Source: Candidatus Saccharimonadota bacterium
Lineage (GTDB): Bacteria; Patescibacteriota; Saccharimonadia; Saccharimonadales; UBA4665
Direction of reading: 5' to 3'
Assembly: GCA_024635495.1 (NCBI GenBank)
Contig: JAGXIT010000003.1
Location: 9,386-73,385 of the forward strand
Length of the DNA: 64,000 bases
Shown here: piece by piece, positions 11,099 to 24,236 of the stretch
Numbering within the stretch: position 1 is the first letter of the stretch
How the letters are laid out: every line of letters begins with the position of its first letter
The notes under the pieces: model-generated
Seen by the model: only the letters and a program-made list of their open reading frames with translations
Told to the model about the DNA's origin: nothing
Database searches by the model: none
Translations under genes and position numbers: made by a program

Positions 11099-11911
11099 AT
11101 GTATATTGCAATCGACATAGGGGGAACAAAAACACTCATTGCAGCCGTAACCAATGACGGCGTTATACATGAGTCCACGAAATTCCTAACACCTGAATTA
11201 TACGAAGATTTTTTGCCTGCACTTACAGAAGCTATAGGTGATTTCACCACAAAAGATTTCCGAGCAGGCTGTGTCGCAATTCCCGGTACGATAGACCGGA
11301 AGCACGGCAAGATAGTCCAACTCGGCAACCGAATAGACTGGCAGAATATACACGTATTGAGAGATCTTGAGCGAATAGTAGCGTGTCCACTGCTCGTCGA
11401 GAACGATGCGAAACTCGCTGGCCTCAGTGAATCTATGTTGTTGAAGAAACAATACAAGCGTGTGCTCTACATCACAATTAGTACTGGTATCGGTATCGGT
11501 TTAACTGTTGATGGGGAAATCGACGAAACCATCGGAGATGGTGGTGGTCATAGCATCCTCTTAGCCCGAGATGATAAGCTCGTACCTTGGGAGAGTTTCG
11601 CCTCAGGTAGCGCTATCGTTCGTAAATACGGCAAGATGGCGTCAGAGATAACCGATAAAGCAACGTGGGCGAAGATTGTCAGGACGTTCACCCCTGGATT
11701 TGTCGAACTTATTGCAATCCTAGAGCCTGAAGTCATCGTGGTGGGCGGCGGCGCAGGCCACTACATCGATCGATTCCATGATTTGCTTATAAAAGATTTA
11801 CAACGATATGAAACACCGATGTTACACATCCCGCCAATTCTTGGGGCGAAACGACCTGATGAAGCGGTAATATATGGTTGCTATGACTACGCAAAACAAC
11901 ACTTCGCTTAA
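11099..11911 (+). CDS. ROK-family sugar kinase-like protein
   Basis: 270 aa. N-terminal IAIDIGGTKT actin-fold ATP motif and the ENDAKLA segment. The ROK cysteine zinc motif is not obvious. Confidence 0.65.
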   Translation: MYIAIDIGGTKTLIAAVTNDGVIHESTKFLTPELYEDFLPALTEAIGDFTTKDFRAGCVAIPGTIDRKHGKIVQLGNRIDWQNIHVLRDLERIVACPLLVENDAKLAGLSESMLLKKQYKRVLYITISTGIGIGLTVDGEIDETIGDGGGHSILLARDDKLVPWESFASGSAIVRKYGKMASEITDKATWAKIVRTFTPGFVELIAILEPEVIVVGGGAGHYIDRFHDLLIKDLQRYETPMLHIPPILGAKRPDEAVIYGCYDYAKQHFA

Positions 11912-12368
11912 TCTCCAACTATCAGATACAATCCAGCGGGATTTCCCTGAACTGAAGTTTGAAGAAGCTTCGCAGTTCTCATGGCATGGCGGCAAGCATG
12001 TCATATCTTACAACACGGCACAGCTCAAGGACGAACGCGGATTATGGGCACTCCTCCATGAGATCGGTCATGCCCAGCTTAAGCACGCAGACTATACTAG
12101 TGATATTGAGTTACTGCATATGGAAGTAGAGGCGTGGGAAAAGGCGCATGAGAGTGCAAAAAAATACGGCATACATCTCGATGACACGTACATCGAGGAT
12201 GCACTTGATAGCTATCGAGATTGGCTCCACATTCGATCGACCTGCCCTACATGCCAAGAAAGATGCACCCAGCAGGACGCCCATACTTACCGCTGTCATA
12301 ATTGCGGTAATTCATGGCGAGTCACTCGCTCTCGGCACTGTCGACCATATAGAAAAAACAAAAAATAG
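11874..12368 (+). CDS. HExxH zinc metallopeptidase-like protein with C-terminal zinc ribbon (SprT/ImmA-like)
   Basis: 164 aa. LLHEIGHAQLKH followed by CPTCQERC...YRCHNCGNSW. The layout recalls SprT-family proteins. The start may be the ATG at 11883. Confidence 0.45.
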   Translation: MVAMTTQNNTSLNLQLSDTIQRDFPELKFEEASQFSWHGGKHVISYNTAQLKDERGLWALLHEIGHAQLKHADYTSDIELLHMEVEAWEKAHESAKKYGIHLDDTYIEDALDSYRDWLHIRSTCPTCQERCTQQDAHTYRCHNCGNSWRVTRSRHCRPYRKNKK

Positions 12369-12416
12369 AGCCCTCAGCATGAGGGCTCTATTTGCATATT
12401 CGAGTATATACTCGAA

Positions 12417-12623
12417 TTACGCGTTCTTTTTTGTGCGACGTGAAATACGTCCACCGACAGCACCGTATGTGCGTGCTCGCTCACGGCCAGCGTCGCCTGC
12501 AGCAAAACCACCGGTTTTGCCAAGCTTGCCGCCCTTTGCGCCTATGCGTGCATAGAAGTCTGGACCATACTTTTTCTTGTTTGTCGCTGCTGCGGCCATG
12601 CCGCCAACTTTAGTTCCTGCCAT
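12417..12623 (-). CDS. KGG-repeat general stress protein-like (YciG/GsiB-type)
   Basis: MAGTKVGG...YARIGAKGGKLGKTGGFAAGDAGRERARTYGAVGG. Start moved to ATG 12623, preceded by GGGAGG. The track start TTG 12638 lies inside that RBS. Confidence 0.65.
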   Translation of the reverse strand: MAGTKVGGMAAAATNKKKYGPDFYARIGAKGGKLGKTGGFAAGDAGRERARTYGAVGGRISRRTKKNA

Positions 12624-12725
12624 CTTAACACCTCCCAAGTGTTTACATTGATGTTACAAAAAGAAAGAGGGCCCTAAACAGCAAAAAGCCGTCTAGGAAC
12701 CCTCTTATCCTTCTGAACTAAGCTT

Positions 12726-12804: not shown

Positions 12805-13593
12805 TTATTTCTCGAGCGGCTCGTGAACGTGATTTATCCACCACTCTTTAGCCGGTAAGTGATGCAATAACAGATACTGGCTGTAGATGTAGCCATGTAG
12901 TAATATCATGCTCGCACCGACCAAAAGTGTGCTTGCAGTGAATGCAAACCAGTGGTCCTGAATCCAGTTCTCTGATCCGGGTTGAGGTGGGAACGATAGG
13001 TGAAGCAGCACGGATCCATCATCACGAATCTGTACGAGCCGAAACACGACATCAGCTCTCTCATCATAGGCGATATTAATCTCAGTGCGTTCGTCAAACC
13101 GAAGGCTAAACATACGCTCGCTTGGTAAAAGCTGCATGACGACGGTATCTTCTCTGATTGCAATTATCTTAAATAATCGAGGTTGACCCTGTTTTGAATC
13201 ACCGTTTAGGTAGAACTCATAGACTGAACCTACTTCTGCGAGCAACATATAGCCGTCCCGGGGTTGTTTCTGTGGTGATGAGTCGAGATACGGTCTAGTG
13301 TTTCCCCCCGAGAATATCGTGTTACTGGCATTGCCGCTAAAGTTCGTTGTCAGTTGACTTGTCGTAGGTGTGGTCGATTTCGTCTGAAGCGCTGGAACAA
13401 GCTTCCCGCAGCCAGAGGAAATCGTATACGTACGGTTTCCATCTGTGTCAAATACGGTGGTAAGCGTACAAGGCAGAAGGCCTATTTTTTGATGAAACGT
13501 TACAAATGATGCCGCGCTCACACTATGCGCATAAACAAAGATACTCAGAGATAGTACCGAAATAAACAGAAGTACTTTTGTTTTTAGCATCAT
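12805..13593 (-). CDS. Secreted protein with C-terminal membrane anchor (last gene of the surface operon)
   Basis: 262 aa. Signal peptide MMLKTKVLLFISVLSLSIFVYAHSVSA and C-terminal TM WFAFTASTLLVGASMILLHGYI. No family recognised. Confidence 0.6.
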   Translation of the reverse strand: MMLKTKVLLFISVLSLSIFVYAHSVSAASFVTFHQKIGLLPCTLTTVFDTDGNRTYTISSGCGKLVPALQTKSTTPTTSQLTTNFSGNASNTIFSGGNTRPYLDSSPQKQPRDGYMLLAEVGSVYEFYLNGDSKQGQPRLFKIIAIREDTVVMQLLPSERMFSLRFDERTEINIAYDERADVVFRLVQIRDDGSVLLHLSFPPQPGSENWIQDHWFAFTASTLLVGASMILLHGYIYSQYLLLHHLPAKEWWINHVHEPLEK

Positions 13594-13606
13594 TGCTAGT
13601 ATTGCA

Positions 13607-14869
13607 CTACATAGCTAGTAGCGTCAATGTCAGGCTAAAGCTATACGTACCTGTTCGTTGCTCGGCTGGTATGTTTTGCACAAGGGTAATATCAGTAATA
13701 TCCCACGTGCAGCCCGTCTGGGCACCGGTACCAGCCGTAATGATAGTTATGGAGTCTTGGGTTCCTTCGGAGAAACCCGTTAATGAATTAAGCGTTAAGC
13801 CGGTCGTCGTACAGCCACCGCCAATAGGGGTAATGGTCGCAGCTGATGGGTTAATGAAGAGTTTCCCTGCCAACGAATCAGCATCGCCGCCATCGGTACA
13901 GCCATCGAGTGTCGAGTCATTGAAGTCGTATCTTGTGACAGGGTTGCCGCCATCCCAGTATGCCGTGCTGCCTGCGGTAGCCGCAATTGTAATTGACCAG
14001 GTTGGCGATGGTGTCGTGTTTGACACTCGAATCTTCTGTGTACTTGTGCCTAGCGTTGCGCCATTAACGTTACAACCAAGATCTGATATTGCGGCCGGGA
14101 AACTAACTGAGGGGCTCGGCACCGATGCACCCAAATTGTCTACTATATCGGCCGTCTTGACCCCGACAGCCACCTTAAATATAGCTATCTGCCCGCGCCA
14201 GGCCGCAGATACGGTATTCGTTGCCGCTACAGATTGAGCAGTAGTGAGTGTCGTGAAGCGCTCAGCCTCCCCAAGGTGAATTGTATTGAGCGTGTCGGCC
14301 CGCTTGGTATAGCCTGCTGTAATACCGCTGAAAGAAGTTCCTCCGATAGTTGTAAACGCCGTGAACACAAGGCTACTACTGCTGGTGGGGGTTGCTGAGC
14401 CAGAGCTAAGAGCCGTACCCGTACCACTGGTGGTTGCGTTCGTATCAAGCGTACTGAGAGTGTTCATGCCGCTATATTCGTACATGTGAGCACCAATACC
14501 ATTTCTTGTCCTGAGGGAACTGTTACACGTTGCGGTGGTCTCACCACCGGTGGCAATTTTATAGAATATGCCCTGGGATACGGTGCCACTCACCGATGCG
14601 GCGGCCGTCGAGTAGCCAGCTACGCTAACCGTAGATGACGCCCCAACGCTACAGACGATGACGAGCAGATTGCCTGCGGTGGCCGCAGCGGGTAATGTCG
14701 CGGCCTGGCTGTTCGAGTTGCTGGTCGTAATCGCAACAGGTGATTGTTGCACAAACAGCCCCACCGCAGAAACAGTCGGCAGGAACGGCGAGAACCAGCT
14801 TGCCACGAGCATGGCTATAGCAAAATAACCTCCCCACCTTGCAGGCTGCATGGCTCTCATGACGTTCAT
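13607..14869 (-). CDS. Secreted surface protein; the C-terminal ~170 aa is paralogous to the 207-aa protein at 16615-17238
   Basis: 420 aa. Hydrophobic signal-like N-terminus. Shared blocks: SPSVSF, STQKIRV, YWDGG, FNDSTLDGCTDG and QNIPAEQRTGTYS. Confidence 0.7.
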   Translation of the reverse strand: MNVMRAMQPARWGGYFAIAMLVASWFSPFLPTVSAVGLFVQQSPVAITTSNSNSQAATLPAAATAGNLLVIVCSVGASSTVSVAGYSTAAASVSGTVSQGIFYKIATGGETTATCNSSLRTRNGIGAHMYEYSGMNTLSTLDTNATTSGTGTALSSGSATPTSSSSLVFTAFTTIGGTSFSGITAGYTKRADTLNTIHLGEAERFTTLTTAQSVAATNTVSAAWRGQIAIFKVAVGVKTADIVDNLGASVPSPSVSFPAAISDLGCNVNGATLGTSTQKIRVSNTTPSPTWSITIAATAGSTAYWDGGNPVTRYDFNDSTLDGCTDGGDADSLAGKLFINPSAATITPIGGGCTTTGLTLNSLTGFSEGTQDSITIITAGTGAQTGCTWDITDITLVQNIPAEQRTGTYSFSLTLTLLAM

Positions 14870-14871
14870 TG

Positions 14872-16470
14872 TTATTTCCTCTTCTTCGGCTTTGCTTGGC
14901 GCTTGGGCGTCTTCTTAGATATGGTTGCTTTTGAGCTTTTTGCGGATTTCTTGGCTTTTGACCCTACTTCTGTCGAGTAAGAGCGTAGTCTAGGCACAGC
15001 GGTATAGTCACCAAGTCGAGTCTCTATATCTTGTAGCTCGGTAGGGTTTGCACCTTCTCGCCAATCAACGTAATTCTCGTCATAGGTTTCGCTGGTATCA
15101 GATCCAGGAGTAACCCAGGTGTCAGGACTAGGCTCAGGTGGGCGAGAGGGTGCTTGAGGGGCTACGTGTTTAGGCTCTTGAGTTTGTTGTACCGGCGTAG
15201 CTGCTTGAGGAGTCTCCTGGGGGGCTTGTGCGGGCTCAGTCGGGGTACTTGTGACTTGGTCGTCAAGGAACCAATCAAGCTCGCTCTTACGCTGTCTGCG
15301 CTGCCTTCTTTGTTTTACACTCTTGGGCTTTGGCACAATTATAGTCTGACCTAAACGAAGCGTATATGGTGCCCTCAGATGGTTCATCTTAGCTATGCGT
15401 CGCCATTTAGCACCTCGAACAGCTGCAATGCTCATAATTGTTTCAGCTGAGTCTTCCACTAAATGCTTTTCCCAGCTACGCATAATTCGTTTCCTGCGGA
15501 CACGACGACGGAAAGGAGTAATCGCCAGCCACGCAACAGTTGCTAGTACCGCTAGCTCTGCCAACGCCGCAAGTGGGTCTGGCATCATAAAAAACAAACT
15601 GGAATCTTTACGAATCTTAGTTTGCTTAGAAGTGTTTTGGCCGATACCATCATTTGGATCGGAATTATAGCTCATTGAGACATGAGCCCTGTAGATACCT
15701 CCCCAGTAGGGTCGCTCAAATGAATAGCCACATGACTGGGTTGCACCTGGCACAACCGGACAGGTCGAATCACTTTTGATAGGTGTTTTTTGTTTGAAGA
15801 TGCTCTCAAGCTGTATGTAGGACTTTACGTCCAATGATACATTGCCGGTATTTTTCACTAACGGCATGACTTCATACTTGCCTTCGTTCTGGCTAATCTT
15901 GATTTCCTTCAGCTCGAGTTTTTTGATGATATCACCAGGCACAGTGACCGCTAGGCGGATTGCTGAACGGAAACCAAGCAATATACCCTCCCCTGATTGT
16001 GCTGGTACGTTTTGTAAGTCTTGTACGGCTATACAGCCATTGTGTTCACCGGGGCTTGTGCCGTCAGGTACGGTTACGTCGAAATCTACAACTTTTTGAG
16101 CACCTGGCTCAATACTAACCGTATCTTCAGATAGATTCACCCACATACCAACTTCTTTTCGATCCTCGGACTCTTGACGACACGAGAAGGAGCCGTCTAC
16201 AGAGGATGACCCATCTACTGGATAGACCTGTAGTGTTCGTTTCTCCGTACCCGAGTTGATGAGTCTGACGCCATTCGTGCCCGTCTCTCCAGGCTCCAGC
16301 GTCATGATAAATATGATCTTACTTCGACTATTGCCCTCATCGGGGTATGCCGGTGTTATTCCGACATCTGCTGAGCCCGCAGACACCAGTGTCTGCGCAG
16401 ATACAAGCAGAACTGCGCAAGCAGCCAGCACTTTACCGAATCTATGTACAGTTCGCACCATCTTGGTCAC
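14872..16470 (-). CDS. Single-pass membrane protein: DUF916/WxL-interacting-like ectodomain, TM helix, LysM-like module, Lys-rich tail
   Basis: 532 aa. Signal peptide. Ectodomain ITPAYPDEGNSRSKIIFIMTLEPGETGTNGVRLINSGTEKRTLQVYPVDG...VTVPDGTSPGEHNGCIAV. TM LAALAELAVLATVAWLAITPF followed by RRRVRRKR. LysM-like ETIMSIAAVRGAKWRRIAKMNHLRAPYTLRLGQTIIVP. Ends in KKSAKSSKATISKKTPKRQAKPKKRK. Confidence 0.7.
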   Translation of the reverse strand: MTKMVRTVHRFGKVLAACAVLLVSAQTLVSAGSADVGITPAYPDEGNSRSKIIFIMTLEPGETGTNGVRLINSGTEKRTLQVYPVDGSSSVDGSFSCRQESEDRKEVGMWVNLSEDTVSIEPGAQKVVDFDVTVPDGTSPGEHNGCIAVQDLQNVPAQSGEGILLGFRSAIRLAVTVPGDIIKKLELKEIKISQNEGKYEVMPLVKNTGNVSLDVKSYIQLESIFKQKTPIKSDSTCPVVPGATQSCGYSFERPYWGGIYRAHVSMSYNSDPNDGIGQNTSKQTKIRKDSSLFFMMPDPLAALAELAVLATVAWLAITPFRRRVRRKRIMRSWEKHLVEDSAETIMSIAAVRGAKWRRIAKMNHLRAPYTLRLGQTIIVPKPKSVKQRRQRRQRKSELDWFLDDQVTSTPTEPAQAPQETPQAATPVQQTQEPKHVAPQAPSRPPEPSPDTWVTPGSDTSETYDENYVDWREGANPTELQDIETRLGDYTAVPRLRSYSTEVGSKAKKSAKSSKATISKKTPKRQAKPKKRK

Positions 16471-16614
16471 TACTGTACATGCTTCTGCTTATTTTTTCTA
16501 GCGCAATCATGCGAAGGCTAAAAGGTGCAAGGTGTCACAATTAGTTCTCGGGTAAGCGGTGAGAACTAATTGTGACGACTATCTCATTAAAGACAGCCAG
16601 GTAAGCACTCAGAA

Positions 16615-17238
16615 TTACTGAGCAACGTAAGTAACAACCATTGGAAGGCTGTAGGTACCAGCAATCTGCTCAGCAGGAATCTTCTGAGTCAGCGTGTAGC
16701 CAGTGATATCCGCGTTGTACGGAACAGTACCAGTGTTATTCAACAGGGTTACAGATGTTGTGCCTGTGAACGCACCGCCTGGGGTGGTGTACGTAGGTGT
16801 ACCCGCACCAGCAGTCTTTACTAAAGTGGCATCAGAGCCAACACTTAGCTGACCGTTTGTACAACCGCTGCCAGTGGCATCGTTGTAGGCATAGCTGTTT
16901 GTGCCACCATCACTCCATACATCCGATGCTGGAGTTTGAGTGTTGATGTCAACCTTTACACCACCGGTAAGTGGGTTTTTGACCTGGATCTTCTGCGAAG
17001 CAGTAGCCAGGGTTGCCGTACCGTCTTGGCAGGCAAAGTCGAAGTTCACAGCGCCAAAGGCAACTGATGGACTTGCGATCGAGAGATCCGATCCGTCGAC
17101 AAAGTCAACAGAGAGGGTTCCCGCATTAATCACCTGAGACAGGCTCGGGCTTAGTGCTGCGTGTGACACCGCCGGAACGGTGACTGCTGCCATAAATGCA
17201 GCAACGGCAACAACTGCGCCTATTTTTTTGCGAAACAT
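16615..17238 (-). CDS. Small secreted surface protein (WxL-protein-like module)
   Basis: 207 aa. Signal peptide MFRKKIGAVVAVAAFMAAVTVPAVSHA and strong AGGAG RBS. Blocks SPSVAF, SQKIQV, VWSDGG, YNDATGSGCTNG and QKIPAEQIAGTYS are shared with the 420-aa protein. Confidence 0.75.
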   Translation of the reverse strand: MFRKKIGAVVAVAAFMAAVTVPAVSHAALSPSLSQVINAGTLSVDFVDGSDLSIASPSVAFGAVNFDFACQDGTATLATASQKIQVKNPLTGGVKVDINTQTPASDVWSDGGTNSYAYNDATGSGCTNGQLSVGSDATLVKTAGAGTPTYTTPGGAFTGTTSVTLLNNTGTVPYNADITGYTLTQKIPAEQIAGTYSLPMVVTYVAQ

Positions 17239-17306
17239 ATTGTTTCTCCTTTTTATTTTTTGTAGTTTTTATTTGTAATGCTCTTTATATAGAGCTATAC
17301 GCTACC

Positions 17307-17336
17307 ATGATATAAAATTTCATAGCTGAGAGTCAA
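17307..17336 (-). promoter_or_regulatory. Sigma70-type promoter TTGACT-18-TATCAT for the surface-protein operon
   Basis: Minus strand reads TTGACTctcagctatgaaattttaTATCAT, about 70 nt upstream of the 207-aa gene. Confidence 0.5.
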
Positions 17337-17617: not shown

Positions 17618-17763
17618 CTGGGAAAATAGCACGGCCAAAGAAAATAGGCTTCACTCACGAAGTCTTTTTTATAGAACAACACCCACTGCTCTGCTTGGGA
17701 CAAAGAAAAAAGACTTCCTTTCGGAAGTCTTTTTTATAAAACGGCACCGTGCTATTTTCCCAG
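17618..17763. repeat. 17-nt perfect inverted repeat (17618-17634 / 17747-17763); one arm is the 3' end of 5S rRNA
   Basis: CTGGGAAAATAGCACGG versus CCGTGCTATTTTCCCAG. The intervening 112 nt contains a duplicated GAAGTCTTTTTTATA segment. Confidence 0.8.
17705..17736. terminator. Bidirectional intrinsic terminator downstream of 5S rRNA
   Basis: AAAAAAGACTTCC-tttc-GGAAGTCTTTTTT: 8-bp stem flanked by an A-run and a T-run. Confidence 0.7.
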
Positions 17764-17855
17764 GGCTAAAAGACCCAAGTATTGTAACCGCTGAAAGGCT
17801 TAACTGCTGTGTTCGGTATGGTAACAGGTGTTTCCCTCACGCTATGGGCACCGAC
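17742..17855 (-). rRNA. rrf: 5S ribosomal RNA
   Basis: Reverse complement contains CCCAUAGCGUGAGGGAAACACCUGUUACCAUACCGAACACAGCAGUUAAGCC. The terminal helix CGGUGCC/GGUGCCG forms with two G-U pairs. Ends are approximate. Confidence 0.9.
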
Positions 17856-18104: not shown

Positions 18105-21420
<3,316 letters not shown>

Positions 21421-21937
21421 TTTTACGAAAGTATACGTTTCTTAAAAAGAAACGTATAGTGTGCAATTGACTAGTTATTGGTATGTACCACTTCCCGCGT
21501 GACGGAGAGTGATTCCAATAGCCGTTTGTCTTTAAATTGCTTATATTTTGTTCGCTGTAACTCTCCATGAGTAATACTCAGGGAGCGATGTCTAGCGAAC
21601 AATTCTCTTCTCTAACTTAATTCAATTGTTAAATTACGACTCAGGACTCCGCGCCAAATTCAAAAGAATAAGACGTTGATGTGGAGCTTGAGTTTAAGCT
21701 TAAAACTTGGCGGTTTAGTCAACTGGCGCTAGGCCTCACTGTCTAAACTCAAGCATCCATGAGATTGTACTACTTTCAACAGAGGCGGTCAAGCATATCG
21801 CGTAGTTATATTTGCAACGCCCTCGCCCCTGAAAGCGAAAAACATTTTTTGTAAGCAATATTACAAAAACACCGACTAGGATACATTTACTGCTCGTGGG
21901 TATCATTTATTACAAAAAAGAAACAATTATTTCTGAC

Positions 21938-22466: not shown

Positions 22467-24056
<1,590 letters not shown>

Positions 24057-24236
24057 AAGAATTTGTCTTAGCGCCAGATTAAACTGACTTACTTTTTGAA
24101 TCTATGATTCGAAATTTCTAAAACAATTCACTGCTACCGAAGTAGCAAAAGTGAATTGACGTTGATTTGCACTATTCAATTTTTAACGTCCGATTTCAGA
24201 GACACCAAAAGATACCTCTGAAAGCACTGGGGTCTA

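Follow-up and report, generated by a model that had tools for sequence, protein, structure and literature searches.

Gene clusters for WxL surface proteins have been described in Lactobacillales and Listeria, for instance Csc of L. plantarum, loci A-C of Enterococcus faecium (SwpA/LwpA/DufA) and Elr of E. faecalis (PMC9772566, PMC10599100), and 91 % of WxL sequences are found in Firmicutes (PMC9772566). A WxL gene cluster is defined by at least one WxL-interacting protein (WxLIP) and at least two WxL proteins within four genes, where the WxLIP consists of a PGBD, an HBD and a transmembrane (TM) helix and carries NQIDKxxxYFDLK as a conserved stretch at its N-terminus (PMC10599100). In AlphaFold models of the E. 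faecium proteins, the WxL sandwich is predicted to be completed by a strand from a hairpin in the WxLIP PGBD (PMC10599100), and the Protein Data Bank (PDB) entry 9i25 represents a solved E. faecium complex of a WxLIP bound to a long WxL protein. Here we analyzed a four-gene locus within a 64,000-nt stretch of DNA (contig JAGXIT010000003.1, positions 9,386 to 73,385, assembly GCA_024635495.1; hereafter the window) from a Candidatus Saccharimonadota bacterium. This lineage belongs to the candidate phyla radiation (CPR; Patescibacteria), obligate episymbionts whose host recognition is little understood beyond type IV pili and a few adhesins (PMC10633639, PMC12206443). Our analysis indicated that the locus is probably a CPR version of the WxL/WxLIP surface-protein system, albeit poor in tryptophan.

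The locus comprises four open reading frames (ORFs), for which the coordinates and lengths proposed in an earlier interpretation of the bare sequence (the sequence-only reading) proved exact. All coordinates refer to the window, and all features of the locus lie on the minus strand. The first gene, p207 (16615..17238), encodes a small protein, predicted to be secreted, that consists of a signal peptide (residues ~1-27) and a single all-beta module of ~175 aa ('small' type). It is followed by p532 (14872..16470) for a membrane-anchored WxLIP homologue with an additional LysM domain, predicted to be cytoplasmic, and a basic tail, and by p420 (13607..14869) for a large, likewise putatively secreted protein bearing the module at its C-terminus. 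The fourth gene, p262 (12805..13593), encodes a predicted secreted protein in which a Cys pair, a linker rich in Thr/Ser and a beta-rich domain are combined with a C-terminal segment of moderate hydrophobicity. Signal-peptide-like N-terminal segments are present in all four proteins, that of p420 being weakly hydrophobic. p532 starts with GTG; translation from an ATG in the same frame, three codons further on, yields the 529-aa form found in public databases. With spacers of 144 nt (p207-p532), 2 nt (p532-p420) and 13 nt (p420-p262), the arrangement is compatible with a single operon. Paralogues of the four proteins, including any further copy of the module, were not present elsewhere in the window.

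p532 is a two-domain WxLIP homologue

The sequence-only reading had assigned the ectodomain of p532 to the DUF916/WxL-interacting type, and this assignment was borne out at the level of both sequence and structure. The N-terminal immunoglobulin (Ig)-like domain (residues ~36-180; 15931..16365) matched the Pfam family PF06030 (WxLIP_PGBD, DUF916) at residues 38-150 with 33.5 bits, above the cut-off of 27.3, and a p532 family profile (A3, 44 homologues) retrieved the solved EfmWxLIP1 (9i25_C, 9i1y_A) with an E value of 8e-9. For a broader comparison, Firmicutes WxLIPs were drawn from 120 loci fetched by the back-translated signature NQxDKxxxYFDL. Profile-profile alignment of the p532 family with these proteins (hhalign) gave a probability of 99 % and an E value of 8.5e-18 over 260 columns, covering PGBD and HBD and reaching query position 273 and template position 282. 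The second Ig-like domain (residues ~185-295; 15586..15918) was assigned as the HBD (DUF3324) equivalent from hhalign and Foldseek, while p532 showed no direct match to Pfam DUF3324. In the AlphaFold2 (AF2) model, residues 40-380 were predicted with a local confidence score (pLDDT) above 90 and formed two beta-sandwiches, the second at residues 185-295, a long TM helix and a LysM fold. Foldseek searches of the PDB with this model placed 9i25_C (E 3.5e-14, 270 columns) and both chains of 9i1y at ranks 1-3. 9i25_C (251 residues) is the E. faecium locus A WxLIP in its complex with a long WxL protein, and the model aligned with it over both domains. From these sequence and structure matches together, we conclude that p532 is a genuine two-domain WxLIP homologue.

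The two Ig-like domains contain conserved sequences of their own, namely PAYP..N.R..IF, Cys97/Cys146 and PGEHNGC in the PGBD, and KNTGNVS and WGGxY in the HBD. Unlike Firmicutes WxLIPs, the CPR proteins thus bear PAYP..N.R..IF in place of NQIDKxxxYFDLK: at this site p532 reads PAYPDEGNSRSKIIFIMT and the family consensus is PAYP..N.RT.SIFI, so that the register is kept but the sequence is not. A loop at residues ~151-168 was modelled with lower confidence (pLDDT 73-79) than its surroundings, as described for the hairpin of unbound WxLIPs, and according to the model it may correspond to the hairpin proposed to insert into WxL. The TM anchor that had been proposed to follow the ectodomain was found as a single strong TM helix (residues ~299-321; 15508..15576) succeeded by RRRVRRKR, in agreement with the positive-inside rule; the protein does not end there, however, but runs ~210 residues further.

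The NQxDKxxxYFDL pattern also matched three contigs not labelled as Firmicutes, assigned to metagenome-assembled genomes (MAGs) of Chloroflexi (L016, groundwater), Bdellovibrionales (L048) and Gammaproteobacteria (L063). Chance, with about 4 matches expected, mis-binning of the contigs or an occurrence of WxLIP genes beyond Firmicutes may account for them.

The partner module and its relation to WxL domains

The C-terminus of p420 had been noted as a paralogue of mature p207, and we found the two to share 34 % identity (E 4e-16) over the C-terminal ~188 aa of p420. This 'large'-type copy of the module (residues 233-420; 13610..14173) keeps the sequence T-W-S-I-T-I-A-A-T and reads L-T-L at its distal site. 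It is preceded by an N-terminal passenger domain (residues ~36-232; 14174..14764) for which Pfam gave no match. A word-indexed homology search with the module returned 104 matches, and an exhaustive search revealed at least 754 representative clusters (50 % identity) at E <= 1e-3, with 670 at E <= 1e-10. In 150 of the 150 listed representatives (161-1744 aa), the last residues of the protein are also the end of the module; these representatives are either 'small', module-only proteins (~200-260 aa) or 'large' proteins extended at the N-terminus. Those members that carry names are from Saccharibacteria, Peregrinibacteria, Kerfeldbacteria and Dojkabacteria, that is, from CPR only, and the best 120 matches of the word-indexed search at E <= 10 were all CPR as well. 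The closest named homologues of p207 (64-67 % identity) belong to MAGs of Candidatus Saccharibacteria/Saccharimonadales. In addition, two primer sequences specific for TM7 16S rRNA (580F and 314F) fit the 16S rRNA gene of the window perfectly, so that the assignment to Saccharibacteria has good support. The passenger of p420 is conserved in nine other large proteins of ~415-450 aa; among large representatives, DUF2341, Laminin_G_3 (a ConA-like lectin domain), an SdiA-regulated-type propeller, DUF7483 and Ig domains were found. From this variety of N-terminal domains it follows that the module carries variable passengers. p207, p420 and p262 had no match in either Pfam or NCBIfam, and the sequence profile of the module yielded only chance-level matches in the PDB. 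The AF2 model of p207 was all-beta (pLDDT ~90 over residues 40-207); its best Foldseek matches in the PDB were the chaperone-usher pilins CfaB, FimG, CsuA/B and Caf1 (E 5e-3 to 0.3), with nothing below 1e-3.

As a reference for WxL domains, we chose 45 small WxL proteins from the fetched Firmicutes loci, 44 of which match Pfam WxL (best E 3.9e-70). The CPR module profile A2 aligned with this set over 129 columns with an hhalign score of 33.9 (P 1.4e-4, probability 52 %), with all 137 small WxL proteins at 33.5 (P 1.9e-4), and with the best-matching subfamily of 17 members, confirmed as Pfam WxL, at 49.1 (92 %, E 5.6e-7). Firmicutes WxL domains are marked by a proximal ..V.[DN]....GW.[LV].[VI].. 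and a distal [IV]P......Y...h.h.h motif, and both fell in register with the CPR module in every profile-profile variant tried. The proximal block QKI.V.NP....GW.L.IAAT aligned with VQVTD.RG...GW.L.V and the distal block LSQKIPAEQ..GSYSL.MTLT with L.VPG...K....Y...LTWTL. An example of such an alignment is the Companilactobacillus sequence KVPAGNIGGSYSSTLTWTL with the p207 sequence KIPAEQIAGTYSLPMVVTY. Control alignments scored lower: 10.2-10.3 for reversed profiles, at most 14.7 for 40 column shuffles, at most 31.7 for 60 shuffles of eight-column blocks, and 16-18 for unrelated Ig-like families. Furthermore, when the CPR hidden Markov model (HMM) was run on 1,292 stop-to-stop ORFs of Firmicutes loci, WxL proteins took 9-10 places among the top 10 and 38-40 among the top 50, compared to a baseline of 213/1,292 (16 %; hypergeometric P ~1e-21). 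The proximal W-x-[LVI] is retained in 82 % of 363 modules, p420 having W-S-I. Taken together, the similarity between the 207/420-aa module and WxL domains that the sequence-only reading had suspected was recovered as a profile-profile link above all nulls. We judge it likely from these profiles that the module is a remote, tryptophan-poor homologue of WxL.

Several observations weigh against this assignment. The lowest E value (5.6e-7) comes from a subfamily picked because it matched best, and the use of a 363-sequence CPR alignment lowered the hhalign scores to 19-27 (P 0.003-0.047). Pfam WxL (PF13731) found neither p207 and p420 (E <= 1) nor any of 29 family members (E <= 10), and Firmicutes WxL HMMs did not single out p207 and p420 among the ORFs of the window (E ~2). 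The proximal Trp is replaced in p207 (V94, within V-K-V). In contrast to Firmicutes WxL, moreover, the position of the distal Trp is occupied by L, I or V and never by W throughout the 363 modules, V-T-Y being found in p207 and L-T-L in p420. Finally, 9i25_A, the only solved WxL chain, was missed by the CPR profile at the sequence level, and the 50 best Foldseek matches of the p207 model did not include it. (We identified 9i25_A as the WxL chain by means of profile A4; a search of the PDB with a long WxL protein of Enterococcus lactis gave no match.) By the family's own criteria, the module is not a member of Pfam WxL. The expectation that the terminal W-x-L motifs would be missing was therefore right for the distal Trp, but p420 does keep a proximal W-S-I. 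Likewise, of the tests suggested beforehand, the profile-HMM search recognised p532 through PF06030 and gave no direct DUF3324 match and no Pfam WxL match for p207 and p420, while the Foldseek comparison with WxL-locus structures led from p532 to the E. faecium WxLIPs at ranks 1-3 but from p207 to no 9i25_A within the top 50.

These negative results could also be explained by the assumption that only the DUF916-type protein is shared with Firmicutes, and that the module is an unrelated, CPR-specific beta-sandwich in an envelope or S-layer-like structure lacking the WxL mechanism. Every direct HMM test against WxL fails and the distal Trp is absent, as this explanation would have it; a composition rich in T/S/G/A/N, as shared by secreted beta proteins, could raise weak profile scores; and PGBD or HBD domains are known without a WxL partner, in 47 and 25 cases, respectively (PMC10599100). 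Unrelated proteins would, however, hardly be expected to keep both motifs in register in all variants with scores above those of reversed, shuffled and unrelated-family controls, to bring WxL proteins to the top ranks at P ~1e-21, to follow identical architecture rules (module only in small proteins, C-terminal module in large ones) and to be tightly linked to a WxLIP homologue. We therefore regard this explanation as unlikely and retain the assignment of the module as a remote WxL relative.

Gene order in related loci and the fourth gene

Conserved linkage was assessed in 55 of 80 metagenome loci that were found via the p532 pattern GEH[NGD]GC. Of these, 54 had sufficient flanking sequence on the upstream side, and in 53 of the 54 a small-module ORF of the same strand ended at a distance of less than 400 bp upstream; a protein with a C-terminal module was encoded downstream on the same strand in 32/36 loci. 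On a contig of 1.07 Mb (L001) the order was rRNA gap, small protein (204 aa), WxLIP/LysM protein (546 aa), large protein (851 aa, with DUF7483), a 238-aa protein, a 68-aa protein and a ROK kinase, which is the same neighbourhood as in the window. The more distant loci L003 and L004 maintain the order small - WxLIP/LysM - large. The genes are thus kept together in relatives, as had been anticipated. Provided that the module is accepted as WxL-like, the locus conforms to the definition of a WxL gene cluster.

In L003 (8743-15335) the LysM gene has no recorded PF06030 match, and it is followed by five further genes for secreted proteins, only one of which (347 aa) contains the module. This indicates that the locus can expand with additional components.

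The resemblance to Firmicutes WxL clusters extends to the overall composition: one membrane-bound WxLIP (PGBD, HBD and TM helix), one module-only small protein, and one large protein with a C-terminal module and variable N-terminal domains, encoded by adjacent, co-directional genes and all provided with signal peptides. The canonical content of a WxL locus, as originally claimed, is supported for the small, WxLIP and large genes; the fourth gene is merely analogous to that of the LPxTG protein in Firmicutes. Unlike these clusters, the locus encodes no LPxTG protein, and an unrelated family takes that place: no LPxTG motif occurs in the p262 sequence, and an HMM of the p262 family found no homologue in 120 Firmicutes loci (best E 0.63); homology of p262 to the Firmicutes fourth gene was rejected. 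Homologues of p262 follow the large gene in ~15 related loci. Its earlier description as a signal-peptide protein with a C-terminal TM anchor holds for the signal-peptide-like segment, but the C-terminal segment is only moderately hydrophobic and stays under the Kyte-Doolittle threshold used. A further difference from the described clusters lies in the lineage, CPR/Patescibacteria.

Proposed mechanism of surface display

In the mechanism that we propose, p532 would be exported and held in the membrane by its single TM helix, with PGBD and HBD outside the cell. The proteins p207 and p420 would be secreted without an anchor of their own, each bearing the putatively WxL-related beta-sandwich at its C-terminus, and the PGBD of p532 would donate a strand to this module, resulting in a non-covalent hold at the surface. 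By analogy with the E. faecium complex, such tethering by strand complementation is likely in this locus. p420 would then present its passenger outward. Since lectin-like, DUF2341, beta-propeller or Ig domains occupy the passenger position in relatives, it is probable that the large proteins act as interchangeable adhesins or binding proteins. Consisting of the module only, p207 could serve as an abundant partner or scaffold subunit, and p262 might constitute a lineage-specific fourth component near the membrane. For the locus proteins as a group, we infer a surface location and a role in binding or attachment from the analogy to WxL systems; in an episymbiont, a role in host attachment is plausible.

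Consistent with a higher expression of p207, its gene is followed by a strong hairpin. The 144-nt spacer between p207 and p532 has a minimum free energy of -49.6 kcal/mol (z -6.35) and contains a perfect stem of 16 bp (16534..16576), which, judged from sequence and folding, is a candidate attenuator or mRNA-stability element that may raise the output of p207 over that of the downstream genes. Hairpins of differing sequence occur at the equivalent position in L001, L125-L128 and some other loci. A hairpin 3' of the small gene was rejected as a universal trait, since strong examples are confined to the closest relatives and a number of other loci.

Both partners resemble, as models, the components of chaperone-usher pili, which likewise combine a two-Ig-domain protein with small beta-sandwich subunits and for which strand complementation is the proposed contact as well. 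Directly after the WxLIPs, Foldseek listed the chaperones CfaA, CsuC, Caf1M, PapD, FimC and CupB2 for p532 (E 1e-9 to 1e-7, target-normalised TM-score ~0.5), and the models of p532 and p207 hint at a strand-complementation design common to WxL/WxLIP systems and chaperone-usher pili. No paper linking the two was found in the literature. One could therefore imagine a chaperone-subunit fibre of monoderm cells, with p532 as a tethered PapD-like chaperone, p207 as a pilin-like major subunit polymerising via donor-strand exchange and p420 as the tip adhesin. Besides the second-tier chaperone matches of p532 and the pilins as best matches of p207, this idea can draw on the strand complementation already proposed for the WxLIP-WxL contact (PMC10599100). 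The hairpin after the small-subunit gene would fit as well. In fimbrial operons, differential expression of subunits relies on a similar arrangement. Yet the pilin matches are weak (query-normalised TM-score 0.3-0.4, root-mean-square deviation 5-12 A, no E value below 1e-3), sequence similarity is absent and tandem Ig pairs are commonplace. Pfam and NCBIfam scans revealed no usher-like protein in the locus, nor is there an outer membrane; no N-terminal donor-strand extension was identified in p207; and p532 is permanently anchored by its TM helix, whereas chaperones are soluble. A fibre of this kind is hence a serious but unlikely alternative, and a WxLIP-type tether for p207 and p420 remains our preferred mechanism.

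A LysM domain behind the TM helix of p532

In contrast to Firmicutes WxLIPs, in which a median of 13 aa follows the TM helix, p532 continues for ~210 residues that include a LysM domain and, as in other long forms of the CPR protein, a disordered basic tail of ~150 aa. The LysM domain (residues ~333-380; 15331..15474) was recognised by profile and AF2 model. p532 alone scored 19.8 bits against PF01476, just below the cut-off of 20.9, and the p532 family profile matched LysM domains in the PDB with an E value of 1.6e-13. The model shows the beta-alpha-alpha-beta order (E333-337, H345-352, H356-362, E376-380) at a pLDDT of ~95. Since most of 68 p532 homologues contain PF06030 and PF01476 together, the fusion of LysM and WxLIP is a family trait; some members of the family (P0164, P0165, P0168 and P0169) lack the LysM domain. 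Residues 381-532 (14875..15330) form a P/Q/T-rich region predicted to be disordered, with a Lys/Arg-rich tail and a conserved W..REGA..EL motif, and the last 47 residues contain 16 K+R compared to 2 D+E. The disordered basic region is found in 'long' forms of ~530 aa and is absent from 'short' forms of ~370-400 aa.

A cleavable signal peptide, a Cys pair in the ectodomain and one TM helix, followed by a poly-Arg stop-transfer sequence before the LysM domain, lead to the prediction that the latter is cytoplasmic. LysM domains normally act extracellularly, and a cytoplasmic LysM on a WxLIP is unusual. The canonical motif and the modelled fold are those of other PF01476 proteins, including SafA (7r1l) and Kbp (7pvc), which appeared among the structure matches and which we take to be intracellular LysM proteins; in distinction from these, the LysM of p532 comes after a TM helix and a poly-Arg stop-transfer and is fused to a WxLIP ectodomain. 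We found no description of such a fusion in the literature. To our knowledge, the standard WxL model gives a cytoplasmic LysM domain no role, which counts against an interpretation of the locus as a WxL system.

A trans-envelope sensing or wall-organising device, with LysM and basic tail as its core binding an N-acetylglucosamine-containing precursor or a cytoplasmic partner and with the module proteins as ligands or regulators, would account for the confidently modelled, PDB-matching LysM domain, which comes behind the TM helix in the majority of the 68 homologues, and for the presumably intracellular precedents SafA and Kbp, but is very improbable given that Pfam and NCBIfam scans detected no kinase, regulator or enzyme domain in the four genes, that some homologues dispense with LysM and that the variable passengers point to external ligands.

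Relation to previous work

Our literature search found no paper that joins WxL, WxLIP or DUF916 with Saccharibacteria, Patescibacteria or CPR, and a transposon-sequencing study of Saccharibacteria mentions neither WxL, DUF916 and WxLIP nor LysM. The view that this type of locus had not been characterised in an epibiotic lineage thus held up. The DUF916 match of CPR proteins is already contained in precomputed Pfam annotations and was hence latent in databases; what is new is the recognition of a module family as the partner, of the connection between this family and WxL, of the conserved gene triad and of the LysM fusion. If the module is a WxL domain, the WxL system extends well beyond Firmicutes and its eponymous distal Trp is dispensable. 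That a WxLIP is fused to a LysM domain with a predicted cytoplasmic location was unexpected. A family of at least 754 clusters that is unrecognised by Pfam and its conserved partner are now framed by the solved WxLIP-WxL complex 9i25, and this frame makes concrete experiments possible in genetically tractable Saccharibacteria.

A more far-reaching interpretation, to which we attach little probability, is that the locus represents the main surface-display scaffold of CPR, in which, in departure from the Firmicutes model, a WxLIP-like anchor would hold Trp-poor WxL-type modules by donor-strand complementation, the abundant small subunit might form an usher-less fibre, and the display of exchangeable adhesins would be coupled across the membrane, via the cytoplasmic LysM domain and basic tail, to a partner inside the cell. 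In that case, a single ancient principle of strand complementation would have given rise to both WxL/WxLIP and chaperone-usher systems, and the locus would become a leading candidate for the way in which episymbionts recognise their hosts.

Promoter region and genomic setting

The sigma-70-like site TTGACT-18-TATCAT, which had been proposed as the promoter of the operon, is indeed present 5' of p207 (17307..17336), and an AGGAG ribosome-binding site (17246-17250) is located 8 nt 5' of the p207 ATG. From its sequence, the former is a plausible promoter, but it lacks statistical support: 5 promoter-like sites were observed in the region compared to 6.9 in shuffles, and the site was dropped as statistical evidence.

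Immediately upstream of the locus, a complete rRNA operon of the same strand was found, comprising 16S rRNA (22467-24057), 23S rRNA (18105-21425) and 5S rRNA (17739-17855) as well as tRNA-Ala and tRNA-Ile. The match to 23S rRNA covers 3,321 nt compared to a model of 2,925 positions, corresponding to one or more insertions of ~400 nt in total; group I/II intron families were not detected in it at the Rfam gathering score. ORFs of 108 aa and 120 aa listed within the rRNA are spurious. At ~17650-17735 on the minus strand, 3' of the 5S rRNA, two similar elements of hairpin and T-run were found (aaaaaagacttc…gaagtctttttt). Their sequence suggests that they are likely tandem terminators of the rRNA operon, parting it from the promoter of the locus.

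Downstream of p262, a Gly/Lys-rich ORF of 73 aa (12417-12638, minus strand; …YGPDFYARIGAKGGKLGKTGGFAAGD…) resembles KGG-repeat stress proteins. It has a promoter-like site of its own (12754-12726, TTGACA-17-TAGCAT with TG) and, at 12393-12363, a strong terminator, and is probably a separate gene outside the operon; L001 has the 68-aa gene at the equivalent position. On the plus strand, an ORF of 164 aa (11874-12368) that contains HEIGH, a motif like that of zinc metallopeptidases, as well as two CxxC pairs (CPTC…CHNC) converges on the locus, the bidirectional terminator at 12363-12393 being common to both. In L001 and L002, a gene comparable to this ORF by size alone adjoins the ROK gene.

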